This document shows positions 3,956 through 40,338 of a DNA stretch of 41,196 nt, in pieces. The stretch is taken from contig DRQN01000164.1 in the NCBI GenBank assembly GCA_011371455.1, forward strand, positions 1 through 41,196, in the 5' to 3' direction. A program made the position numbers and the translations under genes. The stretch is from Gammaproteobacteria bacterium (GTDB taxonomy: Bacteria; Pseudomonadota; Gammaproteobacteria; SZUA-152). The notes under the pieces were generated by a model. The model did not search any database. It worked only from the letters and a program-made list of their open reading frames with translations, and was not told the DNA's origin. Positions within the stretch are counted from its first letter, which is position 1. Every line of letters starts with the position of its first letter.

Positions 3956-4834
3956 TTACTGATCCGGGTTCTGCTGACTGGCCAGGATCAGCCGTTCGAC
4001 AAAAAATTCGAGCTGCCCGCCAGCGGATGCCGGTACGGGCCAACTATCGGCTTTGCTGGCCAACTTCTTGAATGCCAGCGCCGACTTGCTTCGGGGGTAG
4101 GCGTCCACCACCGCACGCTGTTTCTGCACCGCCTTGCGCAGATACTCGTCCTCGGGAACCACGCCCATGAAGTCCAGCGCCACGTCCAGATAACGGTCCG
4201 TGACCTTGAGAATCTTGCCGTACAGCGCCCGCCCGTCCTGCACGCTCTGCACCCGGTTGGTGAGCACGCGGAAGCGGTAGATGCCGTATTCGCGGTTGAG
4301 CAGCTTGATCAGCGCGTAGGCATCGGTGATGGAGGCCGGCTCGTCGCACACCACCACCACCACCTCCTGCGCGGCGCGTGAGAAGGTGACCACGTTGTCG
4401 GAGATGCCGGCGGCGGTATCGATGAGCAACACGTCCGGGGTCACGCTGAGTTCACTGAAGGCGCCGATGACACCGGCATGTTCCGCGGTGCTCAGTTCGG
4501 CCATGTTCTGCAGCCCCGAGGAGGCCGGCACGATGCGCAGCCCCTGCGGCCCCATGCAGATCACCTCTTCCAGGGTGCGCTCGCCCTTGAGCACGTGGGA
4601 CAGGTCGTAATTGGTGTGCAGGCCCAGCATCACGTCCACATTGGCCAGGCCCAGGTCGGCGTCCAGCAACAAGACCTCCTTGCCCTGCGCGGCCAGGCTC
4701 ATGCCCAGGTTGACCGAGACGTTGGTCTTGCCGACGCCGCCCTTGCCGCTGGTGATGGCGATGACACGCACCGGCCGGGGGGTGGCGATGCGGCGCAGGC
4801 CGGCCGCTTGATCGATCGTTTCAGCCATGAGCAT
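3956..4834 (-). CDS. fleN: MinD/ParA-type flagellar number regulator FleN (FlhG)
   Basis: 292 aa with a deviant Walker A (ITSGKGGVGKTN) and the LLDADLGLANVDV motif. It overlaps the flhF stop, suggesting translational coupling. Confidence 0.9.
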   Translation of the reverse strand: MLMAETIDQAAGLRRIATPRPVRVIAITSGKGGVGKTNVSVNLGMSLAAQGKEVLLLDADLGLANVDVMLGLHTNYDLSHVLKGERTLEEVICMGPQGLRIVPASSGLQNMAELSTAEHAGVIGAFSELSVTPDVLLIDTAAGISDNVVTFSRAAQEVVVVVCDEPASITDAYALIKLLNREYGIYRFRVLTNRVQSVQDGRALYGKILKVTDRYLDVALDFMGVVPEDEYLRKAVQKQRAVVDAYPRSKSALAFKKLASKADSWPVPASAGGQLEFFVERLILASQQNPDQ

Positions 4835-14280: not shown

Positions 14281-15312
14281 ATGTCACACCACTACCCCCT
14301 TCTGGGCCTTGGCCTGGCCCTTGGCCTCTACGCATCCCCTTCCGTCGCGGACTTCGCGCATTTCCAGGCATTACCGCAGGCGGTACAGCAACCGGCGGAC
14401 AATCCCTCCAGCGCGGAAAAAATCCGCCTCGGCAGAAAGCTGTTCTTCGACCCCGCCCTGCTGGGCGCGGACAGTCGCCTGTCCTGCAACAGCTGTCACA
14501 ACCTGGCCACGGCCGGGGTGGATGGCAAGGCGGTCTCTCATGGCCAGCACGGGCGCCACACCTACCGCTCGACGCCAACCCTGTGGAACATCGGTTTTCA
14601 GACCGTGTTGTACTGGGATGGCCGCAGCCCCAGCCTGGAGGCCCAGGCCCTGGATCACCTGCGCGACCCGGTGATTTCAGACAACGCCCATCTGGGCGCC
14701 ATGGTGCAACGGCTGTACGACTCGGCAGATTATCGGCGGGCCTTCGCGGCCGCCTTCCCCGGCGAGGACGCGGTATCCGCCGACAACGTGGCGCGCGCCC
14801 TGGCCAGCTTCCAGCGCAGCCTGCTGAGCCCCGACAGCCCCTTCGACCGCTACATCCGCGGCGACGAAGACGCCCTTTCCGCGCGCGCCAAGCGCGGCAT
14901 GCGCCTGTTCAACGACAGCGGCTGCGTGTCCTGTCACTTCGGCGTCAACTTCGCCGGCCCGGCGCCTGGCCCGGCCATGGGCCCGGGTGACGGCTTCTAC
15001 GAACTGTTCCCCAACCACCTCGGCAGCCAATACGACAGCCAATACCGGCTGGCGGATGATCTGGGACGCTTCGAGGCGACGGGCAATCTATGGGAAAAAC
15101 ATCTGTGGCGGATGCCGATCCTGCGCAACATCGCCGAGACCGCGCCCTATTTTCACAATGGCCGGGTAAAGACCCTGGACGAGGCGGTGCGAGTGATGGC
15201 GAAGACTCAGCTGAGACTGGAATTCAGCGAGGCGGAAGTGCAAGACATCGTGGCCTTTCTGCGAAGCCTGACGGGAAGGATGACGCTGCCGGCGGAGGGG
15301 GCTGGGGACTGA
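14281..15312 (+). CDS. Periplasmic di-haem cytochrome c peroxidase (CCP/MauG family)
   Basis: 343 aa with a signal peptide (LLGLGLALGLYASPSVA) and two CxxCH haem motifs (CNSCH, CVSCH). CCP blocks are present: LGRKLFFDP, WDGR, FDRY, PILRNIAETAPYFHNG. A GGAG RBS sits 7 nt upstream. The stop codon lies inside the first heptamer repeat units. Confidence 0.87.
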   Translation: MSHHYPLLGLGLALGLYASPSVADFAHFQALPQAVQQPADNPSSAEKIRLGRKLFFDPALLGADSRLSCNSCHNLATAGVDGKAVSHGQHGRHTYRSTPTLWNIGFQTVLYWDGRSPSLEAQALDHLRDPVISDNAHLGAMVQRLYDSADYRRAFAAAFPGEDAVSADNVARALASFQRSLLSPDSPFDRYIRGDEDALSARAKRGMRLFNDSGCVSCHFGVNFAGPAPGPAMGPGDGFYELFPNHLGSQYDSQYRLADDLGRFEATGNLWEKHLWRMPILRNIAETAPYFHNGRVKTLDEAVRVMAKTQLRLEFSEAEVQDIVAFLRSLTGRMTLPAEGAGD

Positions 15313-15614
15313 GGACTGAGGACTGAGGACTGGGGACTGAGGACTGAGGACTGAGGACTGAGGACTGAGGACTGAGGACTGAGGACTGAGGACTGAGGGC
15401 TGAGGGCTGAGGGCTGAGGGCTGAGGGCTGAGGGCTGAGGACTGAGGACTGAGGACTGAGGACTGAGGACTGAGGACTGAGGGCTGAGGGCTGAGGGCTG
15501 AGGACTGAGGACTGAGGACTGAGGACTGAGGACTGAGGGCTGAGGACTGAGGGCTGAGGACTGAGGACTGAGGACTGAGGACTGAGGGCTGAGGACTGAG
15601 GACTGAGGACTGAG
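15302..15614. repeat. Heptanucleotide microsatellite block 1: about 44.7 tandem copies of CTGAGGA, with variants CTGAGGG and CTGGGGA
   Basis: I phased the units by hand with no indels. The G-variant units come in runs (6, then 3, then singles). The two CTGGGGA variants are at the 5' end. Confidence 0.97.
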
Positions 15615-15698
15615 CACTCGGCACTCAGCACTCAGCACTCAGCACTCAGCACTCAGCACTCAGCACTCAGCACTCAGCACTCAGCACTCAGCACTCAG
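15615..15698. repeat. Heptanucleotide microsatellite block 2: 12 tandem copies of CACTCAG (the first is CACTCGG)
   Basis: It abuts block 1 directly. The unit is a 5/7 reverse-complement of the block 1 unit (CTGAG pairs with CTCAG). It ends 9 nt before the stop of the convergent STAS gene. Confidence 0.97.
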
Positions 15699-15707
15699 AA
15701 AAAGACA

Positions 15708-16010
15708 TCAGGTCAGGGTGAACATCTTGTCCAGGTTGGAGATGGACAGCACCTTGCGCACCTCCGGGCTGCAGTTCTGCAGACGGATGTCGGCGGACGC
15801 CTCGCCGGCGAATTCGCGCAACAGCAGCAGCATACCCATGGCCGAGCTGTCCATGAAGGTGGTCTGGCTCAGGTCGATGACGAACCGGGTGTCGGGGGGC
15901 AGGTTCCGGTAGGCGTCACGGAACTCTGCATGCAGGCTGAAATCGAAGCGGCCGGCGATGATAATATCCAGCTGATCGCCTTCCTCGGAAAGCCGTGTCG
16001 TAATGCCCAT
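15708..16010 (-). CDS. STAS-domain protein (SpoIIAA-like anti-sigma-factor antagonist fold); last gene of the second che cluster
   Basis: 100 aa with a SpoIIAA-type motif (VIDLSQTTFMDSSAMGMLLLL) that retains the phosphorylatable Ser position. A double AAGGAG RBS lies upstream. Confidence 0.75.
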   Translation of the reverse strand: MGITTRLSEEGDQLDIIIAGRFDFSLHAEFRDAYRNLPPDTRFVIDLSQTTFMDSSAMGMLLLLREFAGEASADIRLQNCSPEVRKVLSISNLDKMFTLT

Positions 16011-16126: not shown

Positions 16127-17203
16127 TCAGCCTTTCAAGCGACGCAGAATGTGCTGCGGAATCCTGTTCAGCGAAAGCACGTCGTCCACGCAACCCAGCT
16201 TGACCGCCTCGCCCGGCATGCCCCACACCACGCTGCTCTTTTCGTCCTGGGCGATGGTTGGCGCGCCGGCCTCCTTCATTTCCAGCATGCCCCGCGCACC
16301 GTCGTCGCCCATGCCGGTCAGCAGCACGGCCATGGCGTTCGAGCCCACGTTCTGCGCCACCGAGCGGAACAGCACGTCCACCGAGGGTTTGTGCCGGTTG
16401 ACCGGCGGCCCGTCACTGAGCCGGCAGATGTAACGCGCGCCGTCCCGCTCCACCATCAGGTGCTGGCTGCCGGGGGCGATATAGGCATGACCGGTGACGA
16501 TCTGCTGCCCGTCCTCGGCCTCGCACACCGTCATCGCCGATATACCGTCCATGCGTCTGGCAAAGGGGGCGCTGAAGGCCTCGGGGATGTGCTGGGTGAT
16601 CACCGTCCCCGGGGTATCCGCCGGCAGGTGCATGAGCACTTCCTTGATGGCCTCGGTGCCGCCGGTGGAGGCGCCGATGGCGAGGATGCGATCGGTGGTG
16701 CGGAAATGGTGCGCCGGCGCCGCTTTACCGAGCACCGCATCGGCCGTGCGCCGCTCCGCCACCTCGCCGGCAGCGGACGGATTGCGCGCCAGGGCCTGCA
16801 CCCGCGCGCCGGCCGCCGTGCGCACCTTGGTGACGATCTCTTCGGCATAGTCGTCCAGGGTATGGGCGATGTCCGTCTTGGGCTTGGAAACGAAATCCAC
16901 CGCACCCAGTTCCAGCGCCTGAAAGGTGATATCCGCGCCCTTCTCGGTGAGGGTCGAGACCATCACCACCGGCATCGGGCGCAGGCGCATGAGATTGCGC
17001 AGGAAGGTGACGCCGTCCATGCGCGGCATCTCCACATCCAGGGTCAGCACGTCCGGGTTCAGCGACTTGATGCGCTCGCGCGCCACATAGGGATCCTGCG
17101 CGGTGCCGACCACCTCGATATCCGGGGCGGAATTCAGCATCTCGGTCAGCATCTGCCGCACCAGGGCGGAGTCGTCGACGATCAGAACCTTGATCTTTTT
17201 CAT
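16127..17203 (-). CDS. cheB: Chemotaxis methylesterase/deamidase CheB (receiver plus CheB_methylest domains)
   Basis: 358 aa with receiver motifs ([26 protein letters not shown]) and catalytic-domain blocks ([16 protein letters not shown]). Confidence 0.93.
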
Positions 17204-17215
17204 TTTCTTCCTTGC

Positions 17216-17863
17216 TCAGAACAGGTCGATTTCACCAGCTACCGGCTGCTGATCGATGGTCTTCATGTAGGCCGTTTCACGCTCGGCCACGGTACGGTTG
17301 TGCATGTTGCGCAGCTTTTTCACCCGCACCAGACCGGTATGGGGATGAAACAGCACCTTACGCGGATAGATATCACCCACGTCCTCGGCCACCAGCTTCA
17401 ACCCTTCGAGGCGCAGGTATTCCTCGACAAAATGGATGTTGCGCTCACCCACGTTGCTGCTCATGGTCTTGCTCAACACCTGGCCACCGCCGAAGATCTT
17501 GACCTCCAGGTTCTTGCGCGAACCGCCGTGTTTGAGGATCTCGTTGATCAGCAATTCCATGGCGTAATTGCCATAGCGGGTGGACAGGCCGCCGTCCGAG
17601 TCCCAGCTGCCGGTGCCGGACGACAATGGCAGCATGAAGTGATTCATGCCGCCGACCTTGAAGATGGGATCGCGCACGCAGGCCGAGACGCAGGAGCCCA
17701 GCACCGTCGTGATCACCTCATCCTCAGTGGTCACATAGACCTCGCCGGGCAGGATCTTGGCGGCGTACTTGTCGTTAGTCTTGTCCCAGTAGCGCTTGAT
17801 GCCCTCGAAGCCTTCCAGGGCCGGCGGCATGTCGATGGGGGCTTTTGTTTTCGGCAAGGCCAT
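17216..17863 (-). CDS. cheD: Chemoreceptor glutamine deamidase CheD
   Basis: 215 aa with the CheD signature TVLGSCVSACVRD...GGMNHFMLP. Confidence 0.9.
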   Translation of the reverse strand: MALPKTKAPIDMPPALEGFEGIKRYWDKTNDKYAAKILPGEVYVTTEDEVITTVLGSCVSACVRDPIFKVGGMNHFMLPLSSGTGSWDSDGGLSTRYGNYAMELLINEILKHGGSRKNLEVKIFGGGQVLSKTMSSNVGERNIHFVEEYLRLEGLKLVAEDVGDIYPRKVLFHPHTGLVRVKKLRNMHNRTVAERETAYMKTIDQQPVAGEIDLF

Positions 17864-17873
17864 GACGTCCCTC

Positions 17874-18740
17874 TCAATAGACTTTGCGGTAAATGGTTTT
17901 GCCTATCAGCTCGAAACGGTCACTGACCTTGAACAGGGATTCCGAGTGGCCGATGAAAAGATGCCCGCCCACCGGCAGCAGTTCGGCATAACGGTCGAAC
18001 AACACCTTCTGCGTCGGCTTGTCGAAATAGATCACCACGTTGCGGCAAAAGATAAAATCCAGCGGCCCGCTGATAGGCCATTCCTGCATCAGGTTCAGCT
18101 GGCGAAAAACGATCGGTTCACGCAGCGACGGTCGCACCTGCACCATGCCTTCGTTATCGCCCTTGCCGCGCAGGAACCAGCGCCGCAGACGCTCGGGAGA
18201 GATGCCATTGACCCGCTCCTGGGCATAGACGCCGCGCTGCGCCTTGGCCACCACGTCGGAATCCAGGTCGGTGGCGAGGAGGCGCGTGTCCCAGCCCTGC
18301 TCCGGCAGGGTCTCGCGCAGCACCATGGCGATGGAATAGGGCTCCTCACCGGTGGAACAACCCGCCGACCAGCAGCGCAGACGACGATCCGCCTTGCGCT
18401 GCATCAGTTCCGGCAACAGCGTGTCGCGCAGATATTCGAAGTGATGGTTCTCACGGAAGAACGAGGTCAGATTGGTGGTAATGGCATTGATGAAATTGAC
18501 CAGCTCGCCATCGTCCCCCGCCTTCAGCAACGCGCAGTAGTCGGCAAAGTGCTCCAGTCCCAACTGGCGCAGGCGCCGGCTGAGGCGGCTGTAAACCAGG
18601 TTGCGCTTGGCGTCGTTGAGCACGATACCGGTCTTTTCCGCCACCAGCCGGCGAATGAATTCAAAATCGGCATCGGTGAAGATGAACTCGCGCTCACCGC
18701 TCGAAACCCTTTCCTTGCGTGCCGCACTGGCCTGGGACAT
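17874..18740 (-). CDS. cheR: Chemotaxis methyltransferase CheR
   Basis: N-terminal helical domain plus SAM-binding domain (CWSAGCSTGEEPYSIAM, FCRNVVIYFD). I prefer the internal ATG at 18740 (MSQASAARKE), which has a GAGGAA RBS. The ORF-track start at 18785 would overlap the MCP gene by 16 nt. Confidence 0.9.
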   Translation of the reverse strand: MSQASAARKERVSSGEREFIFTDADFEFIRRLVAEKTGIVLNDAKRNLVYSRLSRRLRQLGLEHFADYCALLKAGDDGELVNFINAITTNLTSFFRENHHFEYLRDTLLPELMQRKADRRLRCWSAGCSTGEEPYSIAMVLRETLPEQGWDTRLLATDLDSDVVAKAQRGVYAQERVNGISPERLRRWFLRGKGDNEGMVQVRPSLREPIVFRQLNLMQEWPISGPLDFIFCRNVVIYFDKPTQKVLFDRYAELLPVGGHLFIGHSESLFKVSDRFELIGKTIYRKVY

Positions 18741-18769
18741 GGTCACTCGTTCCTCGTTCGTGGCGTGGC

Positions 18770-21298
18770 TCAGAATTCTTCCCACTCACCGTCGTCATCC
18801 ACCGCTGGACGTGGAGCCGGACGGGAAACCGCCGCGGGCCTCGCCGCTGGCCGGGGAGCGGGCGCGGGAGGGCTCTCCGCCTGCGGCTGCGGGGCCGGTG
18901 TGCGCGGCGCCGGCTGATGGCTCTCGTCGAGGCGGAAGAAGGCCATGCGCTGACTCATGTCGCGCGCCTGGTCGTCGAGGGACTCGGCGGCGGCCGCGGC
19001 CTCTTCCACCAGCGCCGCATTCTGCTGGGTCACCTCATCGAGCTGGGTGATGGCCTTGTTGATCTGCTCGATACCGATGGACTGCTCCTGGCTGGCGGCG
19101 GCGATCTCGGCGACGATGTCGCTGACCTTTTTCACCGAACCAACAATTTCCGTTAGCGTCTCGCCGGAGCGGTCCACCAGCTTGCTGCCCTCACCGACCT
19201 TTTCCACGCTGTCACTGATCAGCGACTTGATTTCCTTCGCCGCCGAGGCGCTGCGCTGGGCCAGGTTACGCACTTCGGAGGCCACCACCGCGAAGCCCCG
19301 GCCCTGCTCACCGGCGCGCGCCGCCTCCACCGCCGCATTCAGCGCCAGCAGGTTGGTCTGAAAGGCGATCTCGTCGATGACGCCGATGATGTCGGCAATC
19401 TTCTTGCTCGAACTGTTGATCTCGGCCATGGCATCCACTGCCTGTTGCACCACGCTGCCGCCCTGCTCCGCCTGGTCGCGAGCGCCATTGGCCAGTTGAT
19501 TGGCCTGACGCGCGTTGTCGGCGTTCTGCTTCACCGTCGAGGTCAGCTGCTCCATGCTGGAGGCGGTCTCCTCCAGCGAGGAAGCCTGTTCCTCGGTGCG
19601 CTGACTGAGGTCGGTATTGCCCTGGGATATCTCGCTGGCCGCCGACGTAATGCTCTCGGTGGCGACACGAATGCCGCCCACGGTCTCTTGCAGATTCTTG
19701 ACCGAGGTATTGACCGCATCACTCAACACCGCGAACTCACCCTGATAGTCACTACGGGCCAGTTGCGTCAGATCGCCCTCGGCGAGGCGGGTCATGACGC
19801 TGGAGATATCAGTGATCGGTTCGACGATGGCGTCCAACATGCTGTTTATGCCTTCGCCGAGGGTGCGGATGAAGCCTTGATAGCTCTCCACGTCCAGCCG
19901 CTGACCCAGATCGCCACGGGCGGCGGCGGCAATCATCTCCGCCAGCGCCCGTTCGGCCGCCTTCTGCTCGGTGATGTCGCGCCACTCCACCATATTGCCC
20001 ATGTACTTGCCCTGACCGTCGAGCACCGCCGTGGCATTGACCTCGAATTCCAGGTCCGCCACCTTGATCTCGGCCCTGGCCGGCAGGCGCGAGGGGTCAC
20101 CCAGCAGGGCTCGCTGATGAGCGGGGTTCTTGTGGAACATGTCGATATTCTTGCCCACCAGATTGTGCGCATCGAAACCGGGGAAGCGTTCGCGCAGCAC
20201 CTCCTGACGCGCCGCCATCATCTTTACCACCGCCGGATTGACGTAGGTGATATTGAGATCTTCGTCACACAGCATGAGATTGGACTGGGCGCCATCGATG
20301 GCCGACTGCAGGCGCTCCACCTCACGCGCCGCTTTGCGTTCCTCGGTAACGTCTTTCCACTGCACGGCATAGCCCAGGTGGCGGCCGCTGGCGTCGGTGA
20401 GGGGGCGGGTCTGGTGTTCGAAGATGAACCGACCGGGGGTGATCTCGCCGTGGCGCACGTCGTCCGGACCCATGGCGTGGAGGATGCGTTTAATCGCCTC
20501 GGGGTCCTTGTGATAACGATGGATGCTGCCACCCACCACCGAGTCGACGCTGAAGCCGGGCAGATACTGGGCCAGCTCATCTTCCACCGAGGTCAGGGTA
20601 TCGCGCGCCTGTTTGTTGATAAAAACAATATTCTCGTCAGCGTCGGCGATCATGATATTGATGGGCGAATGTTCGAGGATCGAATACATCGCTTCCAGGC
20701 TGTTGAGGGCCTCGCTCGTGCCCATCACCGATTCCATTGCTTTCTTGCTTGCTGCCATCGTCTTCTCCTCCAGGACTTCGTCCGCCGACAGCATGGTGGC
20801 CGCCACGGTATTCAATGCATCACGCCAGGCACCCGCAACCTCATCGGTCCACAGATCACCGGCAAACTCCGCCATCACGTCGAGCAGCGTCTCCGCCACC
20901 GCCGTGTAGTGTTCTCTTTTCGCCCCATAGGCATGGTGTTTTTCACCCAGGCCCAGCAGGGCCTTGCGCAGCTGCGCCGGCTTGCGCAGGCTGTTGACCA
21001 CCAGCTGCAGGGCCGCCAGCAGCTTTTTCTGCTGCTGCGCCGGATCGGCATTGGCGAACAAGGGCCGCACCTCGGGGAAACGTACGAACAATTCTTCGTA
21101 AAAGCGCGCCACCAGGGCCTCGCCCTGCGGCGCCAGGGCGGCAAAGGTCTCTTCCAGCAGGGCAACCGCAAGGCCGTCGCTCTTACGCCGCCGGCGACGA
21201 GGTGCAGACTTCTTCTCCACCAGCGGCTCGACCGGCGCCTCCTCCTTCATCCAGGCCAGCGGGTCAGCCCCTATGGGTGATTTCTTGCGTGTTGCCAT
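18770..21298 (-). CDS. Soluble methyl-accepting chemotaxis protein: basic N-terminal peptide, globin, PAS, PAS, HAMP, MA domain, Pro-rich tether and C-terminal EWEEF pentapeptide (Aer2/McpB-like position)
   Basis: 842 aa with no hydrophobic TM-length segment. The globin region [16 protein letters not shown]...[10 protein letters not shown] resembles Vitreoscilla Hb (FYKNLFAKHPEVRPLF...). Two PAS-like modules carry SIHRYHKDP and [13 protein letters not shown]. The MA signalling core is [35 protein letters not shown]. The C-terminus reads ...[12 protein letters not shown]. Confidence 0.92.
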
Positions 21299-21341
21299 TG
21301 ATCATCTACTCCAGGTTATATTCACCGTGCACGGCCTACTC

Positions 21342-21479
21342 TTTGCCACTGAGACACAGAGGACACAGAGCAGAAAATCCCATGAGAAGATACGGGACAC
21401 TTGTGTCATCGGATGCGAGAAAAACATCGGCACTTTATCCATAAGTTTTTCTCCGTGTCCTCTGTGTCTCTGTGGCAAA
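21342..21479. repeat. 138-bp inverted-repeat (MITE/REP-like) element, family 'TTTGCCACAGAG', copy 1
   Basis: The 29-nt arms TTTGCCACTGAGACACAGAGGACACAGAG (21342-21370) and CTCCGTGTCCTCTGTGTCTCTGTGGCAAA (21451-21479) are complementary at 27/29 positions. The element fills the parA-like/MCP intergenic gap. Confidence 0.7.
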
Positions 21480-21549
21480 CACAACAACTAGCCATTCCAG
21501 CAAGAACTGGCAAAGATGCTGATGATCAGCTGCAGGGTCGCTTCGGATA

Positions 21550-22329
21550 TCAGTGCCATTGCGCGGCCACCATTTCCTCGGCCAGGCGGCGATAGTCTTC
21601 GGCGCCGTGGCTATCGTCCTGGTATTCAAAAATGGTTTCTCCAAAACTGGGGCATTCGGCCAGCGCCACGTTTTCACGGATCGCGGTGTCCAGCAGGCGT
21701 CCCTGGAAATACTCTGCGAGACGCTCGCGCACCTCGCGGGCCAGGCGGCGCTGGGCGTGAAAACGGGTCATCACCACCCGCCGCGGCAAGGGCCGGCGCA
21801 GGGTTTCTTCGACGAAACTCAGGGTCTCCATGAAACGCGACAGGCTGTGCAGGGCCAGGTAGTCGCTGGACACGGGGATCAACAATTCGCTGGCGGCGAA
21901 AAGGGCATTCATACCCAGCAGGCCGGCCGAGGGCGGGCAGTCGATGATCACCGCATCGTAGTGTTCGCCGCAGGCATCGAGGGCGGTGCGCAGGCGCATG
22001 CCGCGCGCCTTGCCGCCTTCGCTGAGGTGTTCGACATTGGCCAGGCCGCGACCGGCGGGCACCAGGTCGAGACCGTCACGGGCACGCAGCCGGTAATCGG
22101 CCAGCGGCGCGCCCTCGAGCAGCACCACGTCCATGCCCGGGCTGGCCGCATCGGCGCCCAGGGCGGTGGTGAGATGGGCCTGGGGATCGAGATCCAGTGC
22201 CAGCACCCGCTGCCGGCCCAGCGCCAGAGCGTGGGCAAGGTTGACGGCGGTGGTGGTCTTGCCCACCCCGCCCTTCTGGTTCATGACCGCGATCACCCGG
22301 CTGACCACATCATTCGTGCCCGACGGCAT
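21550..22329 (-). CDS. ParA/Soj-family ATPase embedded in the che operon (PpfA/ParC-like candidate)
   Basis: 259 aa with a deviant Walker A (MNQKGGVGKTTTAVNLA) and the motifs LDLDPQ and IIDCPPS. Its start overlaps the cheW stop by 20 nt. Confidence 0.85.
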   Translation of the reverse strand: MPSGTNDVVSRVIAVMNQKGGVGKTTTAVNLAHALALGRQRVLALDLDPQAHLTTALGADAASPGMDVVLLEGAPLADYRLRARDGLDLVPAGRGLANVEHLSEGGKARGMRLRTALDACGEHYDAVIIDCPPSAGLLGMNALFAASELLIPVSSDYLALHSLSRFMETLSFVEETLRRPLPRRVVMTRFHAQRRLAREVRERLAEYFQGRLLDTAIRENVALAECPSFGETIFEYQDDSHGAEDYRRLAEEMVAAQWH

Positions 22330-22837
22330 GGTCCATCACCGCCAGCTCGCCGCTGTTGAGCAGGTGATCGATGTCGAGAATGATCACCATGGTTTCATTC
22401 ACCGTGGCCAGGCCCTCGACGAAGTCCACATTGACCACACTGCCGAAATCCGGCGCCGGCTTGAGCGATTCATCCTGCACGTTGTAGACATCGGACACCG
22501 CATCCACCACGATGCCCATCACCCGGCTCTTGTCCTCACGCATCACCTTGAGCACGATCACCACGGTCATGGGTCCGTACTCCACCGGCTCCAGGCCGAA
22601 ACGGCGGCGCAGGTCGATGATCGGCACGATGGTGCCGCGCAGGTTGATCACGCCGCGGATGTAATCCGGGGTATTGGGAATCGGCGTGACCGCATTCCAG
22701 CCCTTGATCTCCTGCACCCGCAGGATGTCCACGCCGTATTCTTCGCCGGCGAGAAGAAAGGTAAGAAACTGGCTGCCATCGACTTCACCGGTGCCGGCCA
22801 GCCCGCTGGCGATCTGTTCTGCTACGTCCATCTGCAA
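22310..22837 (-). CDS. cheW: Chemotaxis coupling protein CheW
   Basis: 175-aa CheW domain (FLTFLLAGEEYGVDILRVQEI...GVINLRGTIVPIIDLR). Confidence 0.93.
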   Translation of the reverse strand: MQMDVAEQIASGLAGTGEVDGSQFLTFLLAGEEYGVDILRVQEIKGWNAVTPIPNTPDYIRGVINLRGTIVPIIDLRRRFGLEPVEYGPMTVVIVLKVMREDKSRVMGIVVDAVSDVYNVQDESLKPAPDFGSVVNVDFVEGLATVNETMVIILDIDHLLNSGELAVMDHAVGHE

Positions 22838-23155: not shown

Positions 23156-25246
23156 TTAAGCCGCAGCGCTGTTCGCGCGCTTGTGACCGCCGTTCTGCGA
23201 CAGTTCGATGATGCCGCCGATATCGACGATCAGCGCCACCGTGCCATCGCCGAGGATGGTGGCGCCGGAGATGCCGCCCACCTTCTTGAAATTGGTTTCC
23301 AGACTCTTGATCACGACTTGCTGTTGGGCCAGCAGGTCGTCCACCAGCAAGCCGGCCTGTTGGCCGTGCCCTTCCACCACCACCAGCAGACCGTCTTCCA
23401 GGTTGGTGCTGTCCGGCTTGAGGCCGAAGGCGTCGTAGAGACGGATGATGGGCAGGTAGTCGTCGCGCAGTTTGTACAGTTCGGCGCTGCCGGCGATGGC
23501 ATTGACCCGCACCGGTTCCACCTGCAGGGATTCGATGATGGAGACCAGCGGGATGATGAAGGTCTGCTCGCCCACGCGCACCAGCTGGCCGTCGAGTATG
23601 GCCAGGGTCAGGGGCAGGCGAATGGTGAACGTGGAGCCATTGCCCGGACGCGACTCCACGTCGATGGCGCCGCCCAGGGCGGTGATGTTGCGCTTCACCA
23701 CGTCCATGCCAACGCCACGCCCGGACACGTCGCTGACCACCTCGGCGGTGGAAAAGCCGGGCTGGAACAGAAAGTCGAACACCTCGGCGTCGCTGAGATT
23801 GTCACCGCCGCTGGTGAGGCCACGCTCGATGGCCTTGGCGAGGATACGCTCGCGGTTCAGGCCCGCACCGTCGTCGCTGATCTCGATAAGGATGTTGCCG
23901 CCCTGGTGATAGGCATTGAGGTGCACCGTGCCGGTCTCCGGCTTGCCGGCCTGGAGGCGCGCCTCGGGGGTCTCGATGCCATGATCGACGGCGTTGCGCA
24001 CCAGGTGCACCAGCGGGTCGCCGATCTTTTCCATCACCGTCTTGTCCAGCTCGGTCTGCTCGCCGGACATCTTCAATTCGATCTTCTTGCCCAGCTTGCC
24101 GCACAGGTCGTGCACCATGCGCGGGAAGCGATTGAAGGCGAAGCTGATGGGCAGCATGCGGATGCTCATGACGTTTTCCTGCAGCTCACGCGTATTGCGC
24201 TCCAGCTCCGCCAGGCCGTCCTTGAGGCGCTCCACCTTGTCCATGCTGAAATCCTCACCCAGCTGACCTAACATGGATTGGGTGATCACCAGTTCGCCTA
24301 CCAGATTGATCAGGGCGTCCACCTTGTCGATGCCGACACGAATGGAGGAATTCTCGGAGGAAGCGCGGTTCTTGCGCCGCTCGCCCTGGCGGCGATCGCC
24401 CCTGCTGCGGCGTTCCCCGGCCTCGGGCGCGGCCTGCAGCGGCGCAGGGCTGGCGGCTTGCGCCGGGCCATCCGCTGCGGCTTCCGGCGCAGGCGTTTCC
24501 GATGCCGGGATTTCCGCCGCCACCGCGCCATCTCCACCGAGGGGCACGATACTCAGTTCACAATCGCCATCCACCCACTCGAACACTTCGTCGATCTGCT
24601 CGCGGTCGATCTCACCATGCAGGGCAAGCGTCCAGCTCAGGCAGGCCTCCTCGGGTTCCATGTCCACCAGCGCGGGCAGGCCTTCCAGATCCACCTCCAC
24701 CTTCATCTCGCCCATCTCGTCCAGTTCGCGGAACAGGCGCACCACGTCATTGCCGGAGCGCAGCATGTCGGGAAAGGGCTTGAAAACGATCTGCCAGCCG
24801 CTGGCCGCCGTGGCATCGTCCTGCGCCTCCGGCCCGGCCTCGGCCGCTGCCTGCGCCACCGAGCCCAGCATGCGGTCCAGCCCGGCCTTGACCTCGGCGA
24901 CCTGATCGAGATTGATCTCGAAACCTTCCTGGGCGCCGGCCAGCATGTCGCGGATGCAGTCCACGGACTTCAGAAACAGGTCGATGGCCTCCTGGGTGAC
25001 CTCGCGCTCGCCGGCGCGGATCTGGTCCAACAGGGTTTCGACGACGTGGGTAAAATTGCTGATGTCACTGAAGCCAAAGGTAGCGCTGCCGCCCTTGATG
25101 GAATGCGCGGCGCGAAAGATGTTGTCCACTTCCTCGGCGTCGGCCGCACCGGGCTGCATTTCCAGCAGCACCGACTCCATAATGTCCAGTCCCTCAAGGC
25201 TTTCCTCGATGAAGGTGGCCTTGAACTGTTCCATATCGATGGACAT
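23156..25246 (-). CDS. cheA: Chemotaxis histidine kinase CheA (second, Che2-type copy)
   Basis: 696 aa. It has an HPt domain (FRAAHSIKGGSATFGF), a long Ala/Pro/Arg-rich linker with no obvious P2 domain, a P3/HATPase region (HLVRNAVDHGIE, DDGAGL, GRGVGMDVV) and a CheW-like P5 domain. Confidence 0.93.
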   Translation of the reverse strand: MSIDMEQFKATFIEESLEGLDIMESVLLEMQPGAADAEEVDNIFRAAHSIKGGSATFGFSDISNFTHVVETLLDQIRAGEREVTQEAIDLFLKSVDCIRDMLAGAQEGFEINLDQVAEVKAGLDRMLGSVAQAAAEAGPEAQDDATAASGWQIVFKPFPDMLRSGNDVVRLFRELDEMGEMKVEVDLEGLPALVDMEPEEACLSWTLALHGEIDREQIDEVFEWVDGDCELSIVPLGGDGAVAAEIPASETPAPEAAADGPAQAASPAPLQAAPEAGERRSRGDRRQGERRKNRASSENSSIRVGIDKVDALINLVGELVITQSMLGQLGEDFSMDKVERLKDGLAELERNTRELQENVMSIRMLPISFAFNRFPRMVHDLCGKLGKKIELKMSGEQTELDKTVMEKIGDPLVHLVRNAVDHGIETPEARLQAGKPETGTVHLNAYHQGGNILIEISDDGAGLNRERILAKAIERGLTSGGDNLSDAEVFDFLFQPGFSTAEVVSDVSGRGVGMDVVKRNITALGGAIDVESRPGNGSTFTIRLPLTLAILDGQLVRVGEQTFIIPLVSIIESLQVEPVRVNAIAGSAELYKLRDDYLPIIRLYDAFGLKPDSTNLEDGLLVVVEGHGQQAGLLVDDLLAQQQVVIKSLETNFKKVGGISGATILGDGTVALIVDIGGIIELSQNGGHKRANSAAA

Positions 25247-25311: not shown

Positions 25312-25755
25312 CTAGCCGAAAAAACTGCCCAGCGCCTTTTTCAACCAGCCTTTCTTTCTACCAAGAACCTCGTTGGCGTATGGCACATAGTGGCGATCTT
25401 CATTCTTGATGTGGTTGGTCAGCCAGATCTGTAATTCGGACATGAGCTTGCGGGTGACATCCTGCCCCCTTTCATGCTCTTTCTTATAGTTCTGGATATG
25501 CGCGATAAAAGACTCGTGCACTTTTTTGTGCGAGTCGGAAAGCGGGTAGCCCGCCTGAGCCATCAGATCTTCTTCAAAGGCAAAATGGGTCACGGTGTAA
25601 TCAACCAGCCCCATCAAAATCTGCGTCACCTTGTCGTGATCATGATTGCTGTGAGCATCGTGCAATTCATTGATGTAATCCACGATGCGCCGGTGCTGCC
25701 CATCGATCACGTCGATACCGATCGACAGCGAGGAATCCCAGACCCAATAACTCAT
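25312..25755 (-). CDS. Bacteriohemerythrin (single-domain, O2-binding di-iron protein)
   Basis: 147 aa. It starts WDSSLSIGIDVIDGQHRRIV and shows the His/Glu/Asp ligand pattern (H..., HFAFEE, HKKVHESF, NHIKNEDRHY). GC content is visibly lower: about 47-48% in two 60-nt lines I counted, against about 62% in a cheA line. Confidence 0.85.
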   Translation of the reverse strand: MSYWVWDSSLSIGIDVIDGQHRRIVDYINELHDAHSNHDHDKVTQILMGLVDYTVTHFAFEEDLMAQAGYPLSDSHKKVHESFIAHIQNYKKEHERGQDVTRKLMSELQIWLTNHIKNEDRHYVPYANEVLGRKKGWLKKALGSFFG

Positions 25756-25818: not shown

Positions 25819-26181
25819 CTACCCCACGACTTTCTTGATGGTCGCCAGCAATTGTTCCGGATTGAAGGGTTTTACGATCCATCCGGTTGCGCCGGCGGCC
25901 TTGCCTTCCTGTTTTTTGCCCATGCCACCCTCGGTGGTCAACATCAGGATCGGGGTGAACTTGAAGGCCGGCAGGGCGCGCAGTTCGCGCGCCAGGGTGA
26001 TGCCGTCCATGCGCGGCATGTTGACGTCCGAAAGCACCAGGTCGAAGCGCTGCCGCTTGGCCAGATCCAGGGCCGCCTGGCCGTCCGCCGCCTCCGTGAC
26101 CTGATGTCCGGCGCCCCTGAGGGTAAACACCACCATCTGCCGCATCGAGGCGGAATCATCCACCGCTAGAATATTCGCCAT
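25819..26181 (-). CDS. cheY: CheY-like response regulator (second che cluster)
   Basis: 120 aa counted from the internal ATG (MANILAVDDSASMRQ), which has an AGGAGA RBS 7 nt upstream. Receiver motifs are DLVLSDVNMPRMDG and WIVKPF. The longer ORF-track start at 26286 overlaps the upstream gene and has no support. Confidence 0.9.
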   Translation of the reverse strand: MANILAVDDSASMRQMVVFTLRGAGHQVTEAADGQAALDLAKRQRFDLVLSDVNMPRMDGITLARELRALPAFKFTPILMLTTEGGMGKKQEGKAAGATGWIVKPFNPEQLLATIKKVVG

Positions 26182-26198
26182 TTTTTCGTCTCCTGCGC

Positions 26199-26516
26199 CT
26201 AGGCTGCTTTCATCTTCAATGCCAGTATGTCCGCGATGCCCAGCAGCTCCGCAGCACGGCTGAGCGCCGCCGATACGGATGACCACTGCACGTCGATATC
26301 CTGTGAGCGTGCGTCCTGAAAGAACGCCGCCAGCACCTGCAAGGCCGCCGTATCCGCGCGCTCGACGGCGCCGCCGTCCAGGGTCACGGGTTGTTTGGCC
26401 TCCAGCGCTTCGAGCAGATGCGCGCGCAATTCACCCGCCACGGCGATGTCCAGCATCTCGTCGCAGACGATATGGCTCACCGTTTCCGCTTCATTCTCTG
26501 AGGTTTCGTCACTCAC
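26199..26516 (-). CDS. Small STAS-like protein; first gene of the second che cluster (start uncertain)
   Basis: The C-terminal ~85 aa look like a short STAS/MlaB-type domain (LDIAVAGELRAHLLEAL...VTLDGGAVERADTAALQVLAAFF...IDVQW). The ORF-track N-terminus reads through a REP palindrome and the sigma-28 promoter. I therefore use the GTG at 26516; the ATG at 26456 is an alternative. Confidence 0.55.
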   Translation of the reverse strand: MSDETSENEAETVSHIVCDEMLDIAVAGELRAHLLEALEAKQPVTLDGGAVERADTAALQVLAAFFQDARSQDIDVQWSSVSAALSRAAELLGIADILALKMKAA

Positions 26517-26560
26517 CGATTTATCCCGTTGTGGATCACGCCTGTGAATCTCACCACAGC

Positions 26561-26586
26561 TATCGGCAATGGTTTTTAATGCTTTA
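26561..26586 (-). promoter_or_regulatory. Sigma-28 (FliA) promoter for the STAS-cheY-hemerythrin-cheA... operon
   Basis: The minus strand reads cTAAAG-cattaaaaaccatt-GCCGATAG, i.e. TAAA-N15-GCCGATAg against the consensus TAAA-N15-GCCGATAA. It lies about 45 nt upstream of the GTG at 26516. Confidence 0.6.
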
Positions 26587-26604
26587 GAGGGTTGTTGAAA
26601 TAAG

Positions 26605-26624
26605 CCTGAATCCGTGGGTTCAGG
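26605..26624. repeat. 20-bp palindromic REP-like element CCTGAATCCGTGGGTTCAGG (copy 1)
   Basis: Exact copy. Its flanks (TGAAATAAG... and ...GTAGGAT) resemble those of the copy at 28682. Confidence 0.8.
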
Positions 26625-26737
26625 GTAGGATTTGCGGCTGTGTACCATTCGCCAGCCAGCCGGCCGCAAGATGGCCTTTCGAGGCGGAAAAAGCGCTCAG
26701 AAACGGGATAGGAAGAAGCGGCCAGCCGGCAGCGGGG

Positions 26738-40230: not shown

Positions 40231-40338
40231 TTTGCCACAGAGGCACAGAGGCACAGAGCACACAGAGGAAAATATTGTGGTTTACTCTGACCTGAATCCG
40301 TGGGTTCAGGCCTGAGTTCTCTGTGCCTCTGTGGCAAA
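40231..40338. repeat. 108-bp inverted-repeat element, family 'TTTGCCACAGAG', copy 2, with a nested REP palindrome (40291-40310)
   Basis: Perfect 20-bp arms: TTTGCCACAGAGGCACAGAG (40231-40250) and CTCTGTGCCTCTGTGGCAAA (40319-40338). An exact CCTGAATCCGTGGGTTCAGG lies between them. Confidence 0.75.

Follow-up and report, generated by a model that had tools for sequence, protein, structure and literature searches.

What is a ParA-like ATPase doing in an oxygen-sensing chemosensory operon? The question is raised by a stretch of 41,196 nucleotides from a gammaproteobacterium (contig DRQN01000164.1, assembly GCA_011371455.1), referred to here, at its full length, as the window. Coordinates are those of the window, and all genes of the operon are on the minus strand. 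A gene encoding a ParA-like ATPase of 259 amino acids (aa; 21550-22329) is found between cheW and the gene of a soluble chemoreceptor (842 aa; 18770-21298). According to the original prediction, made from the sequence of the window, the ATPase would partition arrays of this receptor as PpfA does with TlpT, and a basic N-terminal peptide of the receptor would be the activating element. The idea is supported by comparative sequence data, all of its predictions accessible to computation being borne out, with the key element moved from the basic run to the first 17 residues of the receptor (the tag). The ATPase and the globin/PAS receptor probably form, at a rough probability of 70%, a two-part positioning or partitioning system for an F7 chemosensory array, built on PpfA-TlpT logic.

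The tag (residues 1-17; 21248-21298) is a candidate ParA-docking and ATPase-activating element, identified by its conservation and by a scan of loci. Its consensus is KK-x-Φ-G-x-DPL-A-W-M (Φ, hydrophobic residue). In the receptor of the window, a basic patch precedes I-G-A-D-P-L-A-W-M and an acidic run comes after it. In an alignment of 26 orthologues, M1, G10, D12, P13, L14 and W16 are as invariant as the core residues of the globin. Across 100 unique tag peptides there is essentially no variation at G, D, P, L and W; the hydrophobic residue ahead of the G and the Lys at position -4 are strongly conserved, and the linker is hypervariable. The motif is present once in the whole window. Residues 18-45 (21164-21247) form a disordered tether, defined from the AlphaFold2 model and the alignment; in it, the basic run comes after an acidic patch (KEEAPVEP), and the sequence is hypervariable across the 26 orthologues. 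AlphaFold2, run with these orthologues, predicts residues 1-40 to be disordered (predicted local distance difference test, pLDDT, <50), with a single helical turn at residues 15-18 and a confident globin from residue 45. A basic extension of about 45 residues before the globin, as first described, is therefore present (12 Lys/Arg in residues 1-45).

The tag was found to co-occur with the ParA-like gene. The ATPase served as query in a metagenome scan, which returned 52 loci (ParA 48-93% identical). The order cheA-cheW-parA-MCP-cheR (MCP, methyl-accepting chemotaxis protein) is kept in about 44 of them. In every one of these loci, the N-terminus of the downstream receptor reads M-A-T-K-K-x-x-K-[LMI]-G-x-D-P-L-[AS]-W-M, and acidic residues come next. 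The tag is also carried by downstream receptors devoid of globin (L099, L111, L130). In about 50 loci, the gene directly after the ParA-like gene encodes a protein with an N-terminal tag; this protein is either a receptor, with or without a globin, or a STAS protein. One apparent exception (L119) corresponds to a frameshift in the linker.

The survey was also done from the receptor side. The 120 globin-PAS-MCP homologues comprise 68 proteins with the tag and 52 without it, and eleven genomic contexts were examined for presence or absence of ParA. A ParA gene is immediately upstream of 5/5 tag-bearing receptors (P0240, P0176, P0173, P0136 and, after correction of its start, P0199) and of 0/6 tag-less ones (Fisher's exact test, calculated by hand: p about 0.002). 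Four tag-bearing receptors have ParA between cheW and the receptor; their tags include the variants MGHDPLADL and IGYNPLAWM. In P0199 (L171), a wrongly called start hides the tag; reading on in frame upstream gives MSRSKRDSVSFNPLAWM. The tag-less receptors P0169, P0167, P0204, P0184 and P0180 belong to operons without ParA (STAS-cheY-cheA-cheW-MCP-cheR-cheD-cheB). Two of these operons (P0204 and P0184; L167 and L168) share the flanks of the operon in the window, with fliK upstream and the cytochrome c peroxidase gene downstream. For P0236 (L172), also tag-less, ParA is located after the receptor and is followed by a STAS protein of 168 aa that starts with MSEQDLIKDDPFDWIDE.

The tag follows ParA rather than the receptor, since a STAS protein located after ParA can bear it while the receptor does not. 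This is the case in L172 and in three other loci (L002, L112, L113), where the STAS protein encoded after ParA starts with ..IGFDPLAWM. A six-frame scan for the motif, which covered 174 fetched loci (78 of Soj type among them), gave 51 matches, all 51 directly downstream of a ParA-like gene. A profile of the tag compared with 1.84 billion representative proteins gave 73 matches (E <= 0.001), 70 of which begin within the first 7 residues. Among the 57 matches long enough for Pfam analysis, 47 are STAS proteins; the others are mostly globin or MCP proteins. Because the tag also heads STAS proteins, both in the loci and among the profile matches, its sequence distribution is that of a portable N-terminal label, the receptor-fused form being one of its two main versions. 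A word-indexed search with residues 1-40 of the receptor returned 1 protein (too few exact words are shared). An orphan ParA of a metagenome-assembled genome of Acidobacteria is followed by a protein of 150 aa that starts with MANKPRMGTDPFEKKDPLGWI (L006:1169-1621). This protein carries a doubled, diverged version of the tag and is found outside any che context.

The receptor is a soluble chemoreceptor of the 36H, PAS/HAMP type. Its Pfam domains are Globin (65-169), PAS (204-321), PAS (328-452), HAMP (473-538) and MCPsignal (601-757). No transmembrane segment was detected by hydropathy, in agreement with the first description; the top 19-residue window (1.26) is inside the signalling domain. 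The NCBIfam Aer2 model matches residues 292-842 with 754.8 bits. The match stays under the equivalog cutoff (1200), as the receptor differs in its N-terminal half. The protein ends, after a Pro/Ala-rich linker, with the pentapeptide EWEEF (18773-18787), which is of the Aer2/McpB type that tethers CheR2 and CheB2. The start codon used here (ATG at 21298) has a GGAG 10 nucleotides (nt) upstream. In the annotation deposited with this 41,196-base record, the protein has 826 aa: its start is set at Met17, so that the first 16 residues (21251-21298) are missing. Annotation-based surveys would miss the tag, since it is removed by this start.

The ATPase is of the small Soj type (Pfam AAA_31, E 2.6e-41, and CbiA). 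It has the features of the ParA/MinD superfamily: a deviant Walker A (KGGVGKT, residues 19-25, with K19 and K24), the Walker A'/B aspartates (D46/D48; D130) and the Soj/MinD fold. The closest PDB structures are 8ray (1.4e-45) and 1wcv (1.4e-41) (Soj; aligned residues 9-255). The alignment with Soj runs to residue 255 and the protein ends 4 residues past this core, so no C-terminal amphipathic membrane helix of the MinD/FlhG type is present. The gene overlaps cheW by 20 nt (22310-22329), as read from the sequence, and the translational coupling first noted is confirmed. The majority of the homologues begin about 8 residues later, and codon 8 is an alternative in-frame GTG. The coupling stands with either start because this GTG is only 1 nt past the cheW stop. 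In a plasmid collection, tblastn with the ATPase found no che-embedded relative; with a CheW+ParA chimera, the sole match was the ParC/ParP locus of P. aeruginosa.

How the two parts could act is inferred from sequence and by analogy; this holds for physical binding, ATPase stimulation, the surface and the positioning or inheritance phenotype. The receptor would be both cargo and adaptor. Its tag would be a short linear motif borne by a disordered tether of about 28 residues. By analogy, it would dock on the ATP-bound ParA dimer and stimulate its ATPase. With many tags on one array, the array would cling to a ParA-coated surface and be carried along it. This surface would most likely be the nucleoid, and array number, spacing and inheritance would be controlled in this way. 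The nucleoid is favoured because the ATPase is Soj-like, has no membrane helix and has an Arg-rich segment (183-205). The system would be distinct from ParC/ParP, which serve the F6 flagellar array of the same organism.

Among the closest known systems is PpfA-TlpT, encoded by cheOp3 of Rhodobacter (Cereibacter) sphaeroides. As in the window, an orphan ParA gene is located after cheW and before the gene of a receptor without transmembrane segment (PMC3964821, PMC4085708, PMC7993993), and a separate array system exists beside this one in the same organism. The N-terminus of TlpT is the proposed activator of PpfA (PMC3964821, PMC7993993), and the partners of ParA/MinD proteins generally act through a charged N-terminal peptide (PMC10241942, PMC7993993). 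The arrangement (an orphan ParA gene in a che operon, without ParB, immediately upstream of such a receptor) is found in the window and is conserved in about 44 loci. The likeness rests on published descriptions, and three differences are noted. The class differs: the cluster of the window is gammaproteobacterial, of the F7/Aer2 type, with cheD, STAS and hemerythrin genes. The receptor of the window carries a globin and two PAS domains. In relatives of the window, the tag may be on a STAS protein instead of the receptor. The PpfA-TlpT logic is already established; what the pair of the window adds is an example in an F7/Aer2-type cluster and a newly defined tag.

The affiliation of the ATPase, set beforehand as a test of the idea, was determined with IQ-TREE (LG+C20, 64 rows; support given as ultrafast bootstrap/Shimodaira-Hasegawa-like approximate likelihood ratio test). 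The che-embedded ATPases, that of the window included, form one clade (100/92), inside which STAS-linked and receptor-linked ATPases are intermixed. This clade is apart from the Soj proteins adjoining ParB, and a tree of 117 rows agrees. Among the matches listed by a scan of genome contigs with a ParA alignment, most were chromosomal Soj loci, which were used only as outgroup. An affiliation of the ATPase to Soj is rejected by the tree, and no ParB gene is present within the window. The ParC proteins of P. aeruginosa, Aeromonas and the organism's own species form a clade (100/100) that excludes the ATPase, which has 35% identity with the organism's own ParC; an affiliation to ParC is rejected as well. 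The ATPase thus groups with neither chromosomal Soj nor ParC, as the idea required. The sister of the che-embedded clade consists of three proteobacterial orphan ParAs (L004, L051, L075; 100/99). The FlhG of the window (3956-4834) is a very distant outgroup. The orphan ParA gene of L004 is located after fliA-motAB-like genes.

The organism has another array-dedicated ParA. The evidence comes from contigs that share 12.7 kb with the window at up to 99.5% identity and extend beyond its left end. The gene order found there (cheA-cheB-motCD-ParC-ParP-cheW-DUF2802, in the 99.5%-identical contig) is that of the F6 cluster of P. aeruginosa. ParC (270 aa) and ParP (324 aa) are encoded after cheB-motCD (L177:15701-17487), and this ParC is 52% identical to that of P. 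aeruginosa. The expectation that the flagellar F6 cluster would have its own ParC outside the window is verified. The ATPase of the window is a second, dedicated ParA, since ParC/ParP are present just outside the window. Like the pair of the window, ParC-ParP (Vibrio, Pseudomonas, Halothiobacillus; F6) consists of an array-dedicated ParA-like ATPase and a partner encoded immediately downstream. The partner is the MCP receptor itself in the window, whereas ParP is a CheW-domain protein; ParC follows cheB-motCD, whereas the ATPase of the window is between cheW and the receptor.

ParB, MinE, McdB, PomX and TlpT use N-terminal peptides to stimulate ParA-type ATPases. The ParB proteins encoded behind Soj in the outgroup loci start with K..LGRGLxALL. 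ParP starts with ..LALQSYLDALL in P. aeruginosa and ..EALGFYLDSLL in the species of the window (contig L175). The N-termini of ParB and ParP and the tag all fit the same pattern, basic residues followed by Φ-G-x4-[AS]-Φ-Φ; in ParP the residue before the last two hydrophobic ones is likewise S/A. The system of the window shares with the chromosomal Soj/ParA-ParB-parS system the fold and all catalytic motifs of the ATPase, and differs from it by the lack of ParB and of a DNA cargo and by its separate clade. Judged from the sequences, the similarity of the tag to the ParB peptide is a resemblance and a lead, not proof of homology. A broader scheme can be proposed tentatively, at slightly less than even odds. 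A dedicated ParA clade would position F7 arrays through a portable 17-residue tag that has moved between a STAS adaptor and the receptor. With ParC/ParP and presumably Soj/ParB, three ParA-peptide pairs would be built on the Φ-G-x4-[AS]-Φ-Φ skeleton, and the variable positions (DPL-W, FYLD-L and RGLD-L, respectively) would act as a code against cross-talk.

Several points weigh against the proposed nucleoid-based partitioning through the tag. The alignment of the tag with the ParB profile by hhalign is weak (probability 10%, P = 0.003); a low probability is expected because only 17 columns are aligned, and the register is consistent with the shared skeleton. Two DNA-binding arginines of Soj align with Q193 and E219 of the ATPase; arginines are adjacent (R194, R218), but DNA binding is not assured because of this displacement by one residue. 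The genes of the ATPase and the receptor are not coupled. Their expression may be uncoupled because they are separated by 251 nt (21299-21549) and a strong hairpin. Lastly, the surface could be the pole or the membrane, since in four gammaproteobacteria the imaged F7/Aer2 arrays are associated with the membrane and lie, as a rule, at a pole (PMC7184735).

The last point and the displaced arginines also favour the best surviving alternative, in which the same pair would act in a ParC-like mode: with the help of a landmark protein, the ATPase would bring the F7 array to the pole or membrane, or keep it there, instead of partitioning it over the nucleoid. It is also in line with the place of the operon, which is set in the flagellar locus with fliK on one side and the fliL-flhA block on the other. 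This mode is nevertheless unlikely: the ATPase is outside the ParC clade and shares only 35% identity with the organism's own ParC, it lacks a C-terminal amphipathic helix and any recognisable landmark-binding feature, and the cell already has ParC/ParP for polar placement.

The part of the original prediction that assigned the ParA link to the N-terminal peptide of the receptor stands for the motif of residues 1-17 and fails for the Arg/Lys run. In the window, the linker contains 9 Lys/Arg (net charge +4) and the run includes an RRRRRK patch. Linkers rich in Lys/Arg were found in 39/71 tag-bearing and 21/49 tag-less homologues, so the basic charge is a family trait independent of the tag. The Arg/Lys run is rejected as a ParA-specific element, Lys/Arg-rich tails being equally frequent with and without ParA.

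Another function of the basic tail is suggested by FrzCD of Myxococcus xanthus, a soluble receptor whose positively charged, disordered, histone-like N-terminal tail binds the nucleoid directly (PMC5716589). The receptor of the window is likewise soluble with a basic disordered N-terminal tail. The array could be placed by direct binding of this tail to the nucleoid, ParA having an accessory or another role. Orthologous receptors in ParA-less operons have basic tails with up to 21 Lys/Arg, which favours this view; the tail therefore has some role independent of ParA. However, FrzCD needs no ParA, whereas in the family of the window a conserved motif tracks the ParA gene, and tagged relatives can do without the basic run; several of these have neutral or acidic linkers (L090, L102, L106, L122). 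Direct binding leaves both the invariant G-x-DPL-x-W-M and its strict co-occurrence with ParA unexplained. As a replacement of the ParA mechanism it is quite improbable. It can coexist with this mechanism and would be an add-on more than a replacement: the basic run may provide an additional, direct contact with DNA, like the tail of FrzCD, but it cannot explain the tag.

That the ATPase is an ordinary DNA-partition ParA, of chromosomal or mobile-element origin, located by chance in a che operon with an unrelated motif next to it, is scarcely credible: its best solved relatives are indeed Soj proteins and the NCBIfam models ParA_partition and RepA match it, but these matches (125 bits) are far under the cutoffs (180 and 348), there is no ParB or parS-type neighbour, and the reading is already contradicted by the separate clade, by the conservation, in dozens of loci, of its place between cheW and the receptor, and by the co-occurrence of the motif with the ATPase gene.

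The operon itself is of a known type. Its gene order and the C-terminal half of the receptor match the F7 (Che2/Aer2-type) chemosensory system. The order STAS-cheY-cheA-cheW-aer2-like-cheR-cheD-cheB and the xWEEF end of a soluble PAS-HAMP receptor are those of stage 1 of Ortega et al. 2020 (PMC7184735). The window differs from the published F7 clusters by the ParA gene, the tag of the receptor, the hemerythrin gene and the fusion of the globin to the receptor; neither ParA nor a tag is mentioned in the published description (PMC7184735). In a survey of 206 species, 37% had che operons with a ParA homologue, PpfA-like and ParC-like proteins not being distinguished (PMC2829493). No account of ParA in F7 clusters or of the tag motif was found among the papers searched. 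If the proposed partitioning by the ATPase and the tag is true, PpfA/TlpT-style array partitioning would extend to the F7/Aer2 systems, which are widespread and functionally obscure. The tag would predict which protein is the cargo of ParA, and it points to G10, D12, P13, L14 and W16 as targets for mutation. The apparent presence of two array-specific ParA systems in one organism would make it suited to the study of how cross-talk is avoided.

Most of the gap between the ParA-like gene and the receptor gene is filled by an inserted inverted-repeat element of 138 nt (21342-21479). Its arms (34 nt) are made up of CACAGAG(G) units. The RNA of the gap folds as a very stable hairpin (-93 kcal/mol, z -4.6), and a sigma-70 scan of the 251 nt found no promoter. 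The element could uncouple the receptor part of the transcript or stabilise it. A related inverted-repeat arm is found near 40252 (about 40231-40338).

The minus-strand genes form one operon-like block, from a first to a second STAS gene. They were identified from the list of open reading frames and Pfam. The order is as follows: STAS (26199-26669), cheY (about 25819-26190), a stand-alone hemerythrin gene (25312-25755), cheA (23156-25246), cheW (22310-22837; 175 aa, Pfam CheW, E 1e-38), the ParA-like gene, the receptor gene, cheR (17874-18785), cheD (17216-17863), cheB (16127-17203) and the terminal STAS gene (15708-16010). The block is preceded by fliK and fliJ. A flagellar export/F6 block (fliL...flhA-flhF-flhG-fliA-cheY-cheZ-cheA) is found farther left in the window. 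An Rfam scan of the region 14-29 kb gave no match. A heptanucleotide tandem array (15302-15698; 45x CTGAGGA, then 13x ACTCAGC) separates the cytochrome c peroxidase gene from the terminal STAS gene. Hemerythrin is the third O2/NO-type sensor module of the operon, beside the globin and PAS domains; its gene is missing in the syntenic ParA-less operons L167 and L168. The operon CheA of some relatives (L170:1-2084, L174:1-2112; 869-887 aa) also has a globin domain, placed by Pfam between the Hpt and dimerisation domains.

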